64,000 nt of DNA from Eledone cirrhosa. Its lineage: Eukaryota. The stretch spans positions 375,720,001 through 375,784,000 of the forward strand of contig OZ024743.1 of the NCBI GenBank assembly GCA_964016885.1, in the 5' to 3' direction. The notes beneath the pieces are model-generated. The model had not been told where the DNA came from and did not search any database. It saw only the letters and a program-made list of their open reading frames with translations. Each line of letters starts with the position of its first letter. Position 1 is the first letter of the stretch. Shown piece by piece: positions 34,237-37,200 of the stretch. The position numbers were made by a program, and so were the translations under genes.

Positions 34237-37200
34237 TAAACGGAAAAAATGAGACGATATTTCATTTCCCACTCTTAGTACGGCTGTTACTTAAATATAA
34301 GTATGTACACGTACATAAATATATGTATACCGACGTACAGTAGTATGTATATATATATATATATATACATACATGCACACATATATATATGCACGTATGG
34401 ATTCACCGAACATTTATTATAATGCTCTGTGTGTTTGTAAACAAACATGCCGTATTAAGCCGTAGTGTCTAGCGACCACCGTTGCTCGTTTGTTCAACAC
34501 TGACAAAGGAACGCTGTACTAGTTTCAAGCTTGTTAGGTTATCGTCAGCAACGTATACCTTCCTGCCAGATTGTTGAACGTATATACTTACCTTATGCAT
34601 ATTAACGGCTGAGTAGCCCAATTTGCATATCGAGTGGGTTAATCGGCCGGGTGCAACGAAAACGATAAACGGAAAAAATGAAACGATATTTCATTTCCCA
34701 CTCTTGGTACGGCTGTTACTTAAATATAAGTACGTACACGTACATACATATATGTATACCGACGTACAGTAGTATGTATATATATATATATATATATACA
34801 TACATGCACACATATATATATGCACGTATGGATTCACCGAACATTTATTATAATGCTCGGTGTGTTTGTAAACAAACATCCCGTATTAAGCCGTAGTGTC
34901 TAGCAACCACAGTTGCTTGTTTGTTCAACACTGACAAAGGAACGCTGTACTAGTTTCAAGCTTGTTAGCTATCGTCAGCAACGTATACCTTCCTGCCAGA
35001 TTATTGAACGTATATACTTACCTCATGCATAGTAACGGCTGAGTAGCCCAATTTGCATATCGAGTGGGTTAATCGGCCGGGTGCACCGAAAACGATAAAC
35101 GGCAAAAAATGAAACGATATTTCATTTCCCACTCTTAGTACGGCTGTTACTTAAATATAAGTATGTACACGTACATACATATATGTATACCGACGTACAG
35201 TAGTATGTATATGTATATATATATATATATATACATGCACACATATATATATGCACGTATGGATTCACCGAACATTTATTATAATGCTCGGTATGTTTGT
35301 AAACAAACATCCCGTATTAAGCCGTAGTGTCTAGCAACCACCGTTGCTCGTTTGTTCAACACTGACAAAGGAACGCTGTACTAGTTTCAAGCTTGTTAGC
35401 TATCGTCAGCAACGTATACCGACGTACAGTAGTATGTATATATATATATATATATATATACATACATGCACACATATATATATGCACGTATGGATTCACC
35501 GAACATTTATTATAATGCTCGGTGTGTTTATAAACAAACATGCCGTATTAAGCCGTAGTGTCTAGCAACCACCGTTGCTCGTTTGTTCAACACTGACAAA
35601 AGAACGCTGTACTAGTTTCAAGCTTGCTAGCTATCGTCAGCAACGTATACCTTCCTGCCAGATTGTTGAACGTATATACTTACCTTATGCATATTAACGG
35701 CTGAGTAGCCCAATTTGCATATCGAGTGGGTTAATCGGCCGGGTGCACCGAAAACGATAAACGGAAGAAATGAAACGATATTTCATTTACCACTCTTAGT
35801 ACGGCTGTTACTTAAATATAAGTATGTACACGTACATACATATATGTATACCGACGTACAGTAGTATGTATATATATATATATATATATATACATACATG
35901 CACACATATATATGCACGTATGGATTCACCGAACATTTATTATAATGCTCGGTGTGTTTGTAAACAAACATCCCGTATTAAGCCGTAGTGTCTAGCAACC
36001 ACCGTTGCTCGTTTGTTCAACACTGACAAAGGAACGCTGTACTAGTTTCAAGCTTGTTAGCTATCGTCAGCAAAGTATACCTTCCTGCCAGATTGTTGAA
36101 CGTATATACTTACGTTATGCATATTAACGGCTGAGTAGCCCAATTTGCATATCGAGTGGGTTAATCGGCCGGGTGCACCGAAAACGATAAACGGAAAAAA
36201 TGAAACGATATTTCATTTCCCAATCTTAGTACGGCTGTTACTTAAATATAAGTATGTACACGTACATACATATATGTATACCGACGTACAGTAGTATGTA
36301 TATATATATATATATACATACATGCACACATATATATATGCACGTATGGATTCACCGAACAATTATTATAATGCTCGGTGTGTTTGTAAACAAACATCCC
36401 GTATTAAGCCGTAGTGTCTAGCAACCACCGTTGCTCGTTTGTTCAACACTGACAAAGGAACGCTGTACTAGTTTCAAGCTTGTTAGCTATCGTCAGCAAC
36501 GTATACCTTCCTGCCAGATTGTTGAACGTATATACTTACGTTATGCATATTAACGGCTGAGTAGCCCAATTTGCATATCGAGTGGGTTAGTCGGCCGGGT
36601 GCACCGAAAACGATAGACGGAATAAATGAAACGATATTTCATTTACCACTCTTAGTACGGCTGTTACTTAAATATAAGTATGTACACGTACATACATATA
36701 TGTATACCGACGTACAGTAGTATGTATATATATATATATATATATATATACATACTTGCACACATATATATATGCACGTATGGATTCACCGAACATTTAT
36801 TATAATGCTCGGTGTGTTTGTAAACAAACATCCCGTATTAAGCCGTAGTGTCTAGCAACCACCGTTGCTCGTTTGTTCAACACTGACAAAGGAACGCTGT
36901 ACTAGTTTCAAGCTTGTTAGCTATCGTCAGCAAAGTATACCTTCCTGCCAGATTGTTGAACGTATATACTTACCATATGCATATTAACGGCTGAGTAGCC
37001 CAAATTGCATATCGAGTGGGTTAATCGGCCGGGTGCACCGAAAACGATAAACGGAAAAAATGAAACGATATTTCATTTCCCACTCTTAGTACGGCTGTTA
37101 CTTAAATATAAGTATGTACACGTACATACATATATGTATACCGACGTACAGTAGTATGTATATATATATATATATATATATACATACATGCACACATATA

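Follow-up and report, generated by a model that had tools for sequence, protein, structure and literature searches.

Can a hammerhead-like motif that combines two weakening features, a U·U apposition at the base of helix II and a palindromic helix III, act as a ribozyme, and does it depend on the tandem repeats in which it lies? This question is raised by a stretch of 64,000 nucleotides from Eledone cirrhosa (contig OZ024743.1, positions 375,720,001 to 375,784,000; hereafter the window), in which one copy of the motif occupies 36460–36502 on the minus strand. Read on that strand, the copy consists of ACGUUG, the core C3–A9 (CUGACGA; 36490–36496, with N7 at 36492), U, AGCU, AACA, AGCU, U, GAA, ACUAGU and A, followed by the predicted cut and by CAGCGU. 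The core segments C3–A9 and G12–A14 are intact, N7 being C, and the motif holds every element of a type I hammerhead core (C3 U4 G5 A6 N7 G8 A9, G12 A13 A14, A15.1–U16.1 and an NUH triplet). Its three helices are laid out with helix I open, as in type I, and the pairing is backed by covariation in helix I, which has 6 bp (ACGUUG/CAGCGU). Helix II (AGCU/AGCU, 4 bp, loop AACA) lies with U10.1 (36489) and U11.1 (36476) at 36476–36489, the two uridines facing each other at its base. Helix III is the palindrome ACUAGU (36467–36472), which could pair within one copy as A15.1-C15.2-(UA)-G16.2-U16.1 and is predicted to form a duplex between copies. By hammerhead numbering, cleavage is predicted after GUA, between A17 (36466) and C1.1 (36465). 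The fold, with pairs ext1–ext3, extends helix I over 36441–36525 across a 3x1 internal loop, beyond which lies a long stem that is the likely partner of loop 2.

On the features that can be tested in the sequence, namely the full core, the three-helix layout and covariation at pair 2.3–1.3, the motif is confirmed as a type I hammerhead, which is how the first-pass annotation had read it. An Rfam scan gave no hammerhead match either at the gathering score or at E ≤ 10, and the isolated 43-nt motif folds no better than its shuffles (z = −0.15). The 426-nt cut-to-cut monomer (36040–36465, minus strand), which the folding model treats as a predicted circular RNA, is highly folded (z = −6.3), a value to which an AT-rich palindromic tract contributes in part.

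The motif recurs in a minus-strand tandem array of units of about 430 bp (34236–59463, GC about 0.37) that runs on beyond the end of the window and whose interior contains no ORF of 90 amino acids or more. Each of its 59 units has the motif, all on the minus strand, and the plus strand of the window has no copy. The 59 copies comprise 28 exact ones, 13 with a change in loop 2, 7 with a broken 2.4–1.4 pair, 5 with AACCU, 4 in which 1.1 is G and 2 in which G12>U accompanies that G, so that the core and helices are kept in 41 and a helix- or core-breaking change is present in 18. The AACCU copies (34516–34548, 38622–38654, 39051, 44016–44048 and 44441) include the three that the first-pass annotation had located correctly (34531–34545, 38641 and 44035), but they do not represent a different register of helix II as it had proposed: AACCU is a private mutation with five exact matches genome-wide, every one inside the array in the window, and it puts a C·C mismatch into helix II. 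Near-identical units recur at lags of 9, 11, 13 and 14, and a 6.5-kb duplication takes in the Hydra-clade element described below together with its flanking units; these shared variants show that the long array in the window grew at the DNA level by block duplication. A further mark of block duplication is a 231-bp deleted unit that is present twice (35378–35640 and 39913–40175), 4,535 bp apart.

Searching the 3.0-Gb genome with two motif patterns gave 8,665 and 24,062 exact matches, whereas reversed control patterns gave none in the whole genome, which makes a chance origin unlikely; the family has at least 24,062 copies and several subfamilies. In a hand count of the first 100 of the 24,062 matches, pair 2.3–1.3 was U·G in 48, G·U in 38, A–U in 12 and U/U in 2, that is, paired in 98 where independent assortment would give about half, these being three subfamily states and hence few independent events. 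A script run on 49 distinct loci, a sample drawn mostly with patterns that fix the core, found 2.3–1.3 paired in 47, N7 as C in 37 and U in 12, and helix II invariant; helix III was likewise invariant, and neither helix showed covariation across these loci. We also aligned, at 80% likeness and with no pattern filter, contigs of unidentified kind that are mute on transcription and on ends (run X1). There, variants at 10% or more fell within the 43-nt motif only at N7, at one loop-2 base and on both sides of 2.3–1.3, and the other 313 bases held 18 polymorphic sites by hand count; the motif is not less variable than the rest, yet its changes are confined to tolerated positions. N7 is the only core position that differs between subfamilies and the only variable core site in that run. 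Comparison of the young subfamilies A and B (internal identity 97% and 96%) gives 71 differences over the 379 positions outside the motif and 3 over the 43 within it, a contrast whose p of 2.5e-4 is inflated by the roughly 24 of 43 motif positions that the search pattern fixed. Units of subfamily B measure 456–538 bp, beyond the 150–450 bp quoted for non-LTR retrozymes. Because pair 2.3–1.3 covaries and N7 varies, it is likely, as judged from sequence, that the family evolved as a genuine ribozyme. When we looked for this core with U·U in families unrelated to the retrozyme, we obtained 475 matches, the first 100 of which all came from the retrozyme family itself.

The U·U below helix II is a property of the family. 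The folding model gives the A10.2–U11.2 register P = 0.94, in agreement with the first-pass assignment of U10.1 and U11.1; we rejected a bulged register (P = 0.02), in which U would follow A9 as an additional base and the 3′ side would bulge. U·U is present at 10.1/11.1 in 49 of 49 loci, and the quasi-conserved G10.1–C11.1 pair is absent from the motif. Genome-wide, 175 copies (about 0.7% of the family) have a base other than U at 10.1, and the first 100 of these include none with G–C at 10.1/11.1; the only recurrent double change is C·A, with about 9 cases among the first 100 of the 175, a change also compatible with the unbulged register. The C·A set, which is small, dispersed (L061 and about eight other places) and again non-Watson–Crick, is possibly an old subfamily. 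These counts indicate that U·U is the working consensus of the family rather than decay; taken by itself, the fact that the subfamilies have kept it does not reach significance (P = 0.66). The suggestion in the first-pass annotation that U·U may abolish cleavage is unlikely, since U·U is the consensus of subfamilies that kept spreading (175 non-U10.1 copies against at least 24,062 family matches). Nor is U·U a novelty, as the word non-canonical had implied, for it is published for the axolotl hammerhead HHR_Amex2 (Rtz_353), described as cleaving to 22% within 1 h in monomeric form and to a much greater extent as a dimer (PMC7229834), so that G10.1–C11.1 is evidently not obligatory. HHR_Amex2 is likewise a type I hammerhead in a tandem repeat (350 bp in axolotl) with U·U at the base of helix II; unlike its 2-bp helix III with a tetraloop, the motif has a shorter palindromic form, a comparison of described layouts only (PMC7229834).

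In a nearest-neighbour model, helix III of a single motif barely forms (P of 15.1–16.1 about 0), and C3-U4-G5 mispair with the palindrome (P 0.7–0.9 in the isolated motif and 0.89 in the circle, with C3–G16.2 at about 0.9). A double-hammerhead fold with both sites active costs 3.2–5.1 kcal/mol in 9 of 9 modelled two-unit transcripts, four from the window and five from other loci, against 11–13 kcal/mol for one single hammerhead in such transcripts and 7.7 kcal/mol for an isolated or circular one. In this model, which treats secondary structure and leaves tertiary contacts outside, helix III is palindromic and unstable and tandem RNA can adopt a double-hammerhead fold, the double fold being a minor state (cross-pair P 0.004–0.022). 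Hammerhead variants of Penelope-like elements (PLEs) reportedly cleave as dimers, according to a 2017 study. In axolotl HHR_Amex1, helix III is a single pair with a palindromic tetraloop, and cleavage is reported as 6% for the monomer and far better for the dimer (PMC7229834). The cheaper double fold in the model and the axolotl precedent (PMC7229834) together make dimer-favoured cleavage, as the first-pass annotation had supposed, the likeliest mode.

The stronger claim, that the tandem layout is required because adjacent copies pair, is overstated. Excision of a monomer requires two ribozymes and two cuts whatever the mechanism, and 34 of the 49 loci, fetched with about 3 kb each, have no same-strand tandem pair. 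Covariation that restores the palindrome was not found: of the double mutants, 4 among 18 at 15.2/16.2 and 1 among 7 in the loop are palindromic, where chance would give roughly one third. The palindrome is invariant across subfamilies, and retention of CUAG between them is not significant alone (P = 0.44). The necessity of a tandem layout is also doubtful because the internally looped helix I of the motif matches that described for newt hammerheads that are able to cleave as monomers too (PMC6155905).

The dispersed copies bear the marks of retrotransposition: at least 24,062 copies, with 5′-truncated and inverted insertions and fixed 3′ ends. They end at two fixed TTAT sites, about 222–229 and 285 bases past the cut site, that abut (AT)n, and their 5′ parts are variable and often inverted. 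The two fixed sites account for 68 of the 88 ends called in 67 distinct loci, and all 20 two-ended inverted insertions are asymmetric; both fixed ends are cleanly called in 13 of these 20, one short and one long, and two equal ends occur in none of the 20. The locus in the window conforms, with its long end at 34236 and an inversion plus short end about 9 kb past the end of the window; by repeat and end analysis, the (AT)n target joined to the long, or tailed, 3′ end lies at 33887–34260 (strand not assigned). The segment that the two fixed 3′ ends enclose also occurs by itself, as a 63-bp plus-strand fragment followed by (AT)n (32207–32269, by sequence match), which interrupts the 3′ end of a decayed Helitron Rep/helicase (29514–32200; Helitron_like_N, PIF1). 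At the cut site we found no enrichment of insertion ends relative to a control TA three bases away (5′ ends 24 versus 18; 3′ ends 9 versus 3), which argues for a circle or an uncut multimer as the template rather than a cut linear monomer; this fits circles and equally fits uncut RNA. PLE insertions are described as 5′-truncated, accompanied by a partial copy in inverted orientation and tailed at one end (PMC8557442), and the asymmetric retrozyme insertions match that one-ended tail (PMC8557442). The insertion anatomy is Penelope-like and points to Penelope-like machinery, with the enzyme itself putative. PLE fragments near the retrozyme are scattered and occur at only 6 of 95 loci, some of them overlapping; an autonomous partner may lie elsewhere in the genome.

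A candidate enzyme lies next to the array. The plus-strand sequence at 59464–64000, inserted in the (TA)n tract of an array unit and ending at (AT)n, is assigned by motifs rather than by a tree to the Hydra clade of PLEs, whose diagnostic motifs are as described in PMC8557442: it encodes RLRW (RWK-like), DKT, the CxCX5C linker CNCRIKNKC and, at the C terminus, GIY-YIG. Its ORF (60682–63148) is split over two frames in the window copy, frameshifted relative to the 821-aa frame that is open in most of the 66 scored genomic matches (98–100% identity). The element carries its own pLTR hammerhead (about 60472–60538, with the palindrome AUGCGCAU at about 60478), and its family ends at two fixed positions separated by 88 bp, each abutting (AT)n. 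Further Hydra-type pLTR hammerheads occur in the window as an inverted pair, 10594(−)/10717(+) (10594–10780), and as a partial copy at 59650(−). We found no homology between the element and the retrozyme repeat (best E 0.66); because they have no sequence in common, the element is a candidate mobiliser only. The retrozyme adjoins Hydra-clade copies in only 2 of 20 cases, both local.

The window holds other repeats and fragments besides. Further matches resembling a hammerhead core lie on the minus strand at 16943, 23702, 32575 and 33086, that at 16943 resembling a compact minimal hammerhead near RT fragments, and there are weak RVT_1 matches at 15205–16143, 18545–19459 and 23373–24323. A direct duplication of about 511 bp (32470/32981) followed by a short inverted copy gives 32290–33310 the layout of a Penelope-like but unidentified element. 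A long imperfect CAG/CAA-rich tandem repeat with periods of 42, 63, 78 and 108 bp occupies 19606–20521.

Set beside known systems, the repeat fits a non-LTR retrozyme on the features that its sequence allows to be tested, being a non-coding tandem repeat of low GC with a type I hammerhead in each unit and signs of retrotransposition. PMC7229834 is the source that defines non-LTR retrozymes and names PLEs as their likely mobiliser. Like the retrozymes described from corals and mussels, the repeat is non-coding and tandem, has a GC content below 45% and one type I hammerhead per unit, and ranges from dimers to arrays of about 60 units with thousands of dispersed copies (PMC7229834; preprint 10.64898/2026.07.22.740005). 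The coral and mussel ribozymes are described as cleaving efficiently as monomers, unlike the dimer-favoured mode predicted here, and in the available excerpts of PMC7229834 and of the preprint 10.64898/2026.07.22.740005 we found no description of twin fixed 3′ ends on (AT)n or of asymmetric inversions for them. With the hammerheads of Amex1 and newt satellite 2 the motif has in common a single-pair helix III and a palindromic tetraloop, and the dimeric cleavage described there is predicted here; unlike the motif, which joins both weakening features, they have no U·U in their descriptions, and the unit here is longer (420–540 bp).

The likeness to PLEs is of another kind. The layout of metazoan hammerheads (6 bp, 4 bp and a short palindromic helix), to which the motif conforms, and the logic of their dimers are set out in PMC4209133. 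A palindromic helix III and a dimer design are found both here and in PLE minimal hammerheads and Hydra-clade PLEs, as are insertion into (TA)n, truncated 5′ parts, a partial copy in inverted orientation and a one-ended tail (PMC4209133, PMC8557442). In descriptions of PLE minimal hammerheads, G10.1–C11.1 is kept, A9 is followed by an additional base, helix II is long and helix I short, whereas the motif has the canonical 6-bp and 4-bp helices; the PLE hammerheads sit in a pLTR flanking an RT/GIY-YIG ORF, whereas the retrozyme repeat has neither an ORF nor homology to the Hydra pLTR. The tail measures about 56–60 bp in the retrozyme, against 88 bp in the neighbouring Hydra family and 30–40 bp in published descriptions of Naiads. 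A 2026 preprint (10.64898/2026.07.22.740005) argues that retrozymes represent PLE-derived, non-autonomous elements and reports that one of nine Xenopus dimers was active.

We think it probable, on the folding models and the insertion anatomy, that the repeat is a high-copy, non-coding, non-LTR retrozyme that cleaves mainly as an ACUAGU-paired double hammerhead, U·U slowing but not stopping the cut. Read-through transcription of the minus strand would yield RNAs of at least two units, in which the helix I strands would swap between neighbours, ACUAGU:ACUAGU would form a 6-bp helix III and both GUA sites would be cut. By analogy with known retrozymes, a host ligase of RtcB type would then circularise the monomer. 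Once in the circle, the single core is predicted to pair wrongly with its own palindrome (C3–G16.2, P about 0.9), which would shield the circle against re-cutting. A putative Penelope-like RT/endonuclease would copy circles or uncut multimers into (AT)n, and the array in the window afterwards expanded, as its shared variants show, by block duplication at the DNA level. This reading is supported by the cheaper double fold and the axolotl dimer precedent (PMC7229834) and weakened by the lack of in vitro cleavage in eight of nine Xenopus retrozyme dimers (preprint 10.64898/2026.07.22.740005). We regard as tentative, and on balance doubtful, a more specific version in which the doubly handicapped hammerhead is a strict switch, on in the multimer and off in the circle, with the circles integrated by a Hydra-clade Penelope-like enzyme.

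Three other explanations bear on the same evidence. Contact between loop 2 and helix I might suffice for cleavage by the monomer, the tandem layout then reflecting no more than rolling-circle copying and the two cuts required; the internally looped extension of helix I is present, newt hammerheads extended in this way are capable of monomeric cleavage (PMC6155905), most invertebrate retrozyme hammerheads are described as efficient monomers (PMC7229834) and the palindrome shows no covariation. We nevertheless hold this unlikely, as helix III would consist of only one A–U pair with a tetraloop, or of 2 bp with a 2-nt loop, is weaker than the invertebrate form of 2 bp plus a tetraloop, has U·U added to it, and gives P(15.1–16.1) of about 0 against about 0.9 for the rival mispairing of the core. 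Alternatively, the ribozyme could be nearly inactive, with the family spreading from uncut multimers by way of a Penelope-like enzyme and the motif being kept by descent or for a structural role. Insertions that begin at fixed internal sites and not at the cut, the lack of enrichment at the cut site, the eight inactive Xenopus dimers of nine (preprint 10.64898/2026.07.22.740005) and the weakness of PLE minimal hammerheads even as dimers (PMC4209133) fit such a vestigial motif, but its changes between subfamilies at N7, in loop 2 and at a compensated pair are those expected under continued selection for catalysis, and the U·U hammerheads of axolotl are active (PMC7229834); we consider it improbable. 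That the motif is a chance likeness in an ordinary satellite, as the missing Rfam match and the shuffle-level folding of the 43-nt motif might suggest, is effectively refuted by the covariation, and it would need core positions, three helices, an internal loop, a compensatory change and retrotransposon-type insertions all to coincide.

For the double-hammerhead retrozyme that we favour, each ribozyme feature is already known, U·U and a palindromic, dimer-type helix III both occurring in salamander retrozymes, and no motif with both weakening features was found in the excerpts of the literature that we searched. What is fresh here is that the two occur together in one very successful family, along with a Penelope-type insertion footprint. 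The enzyme that mobilises animal retrozymes was presented as a hypothesis in 2020 (PMC7229834), and the 2026 preprint (10.64898/2026.07.22.740005) argues for the mobiliser from co-occurrence and pLTR homology. If the switch reading were true, the twin asymmetric 3′ ends would be a genomic footprint of PLE machinery mobilising an animal retrozyme. The retrozyme and an intact, young Hydra-clade element have the (TA)n target and the pattern of two fixed ends in common, and a trans-mobilisation assay can therefore be designed directly. With tens of thousands of young copies, several subfamilies and natural covariation, the family offers a test system.
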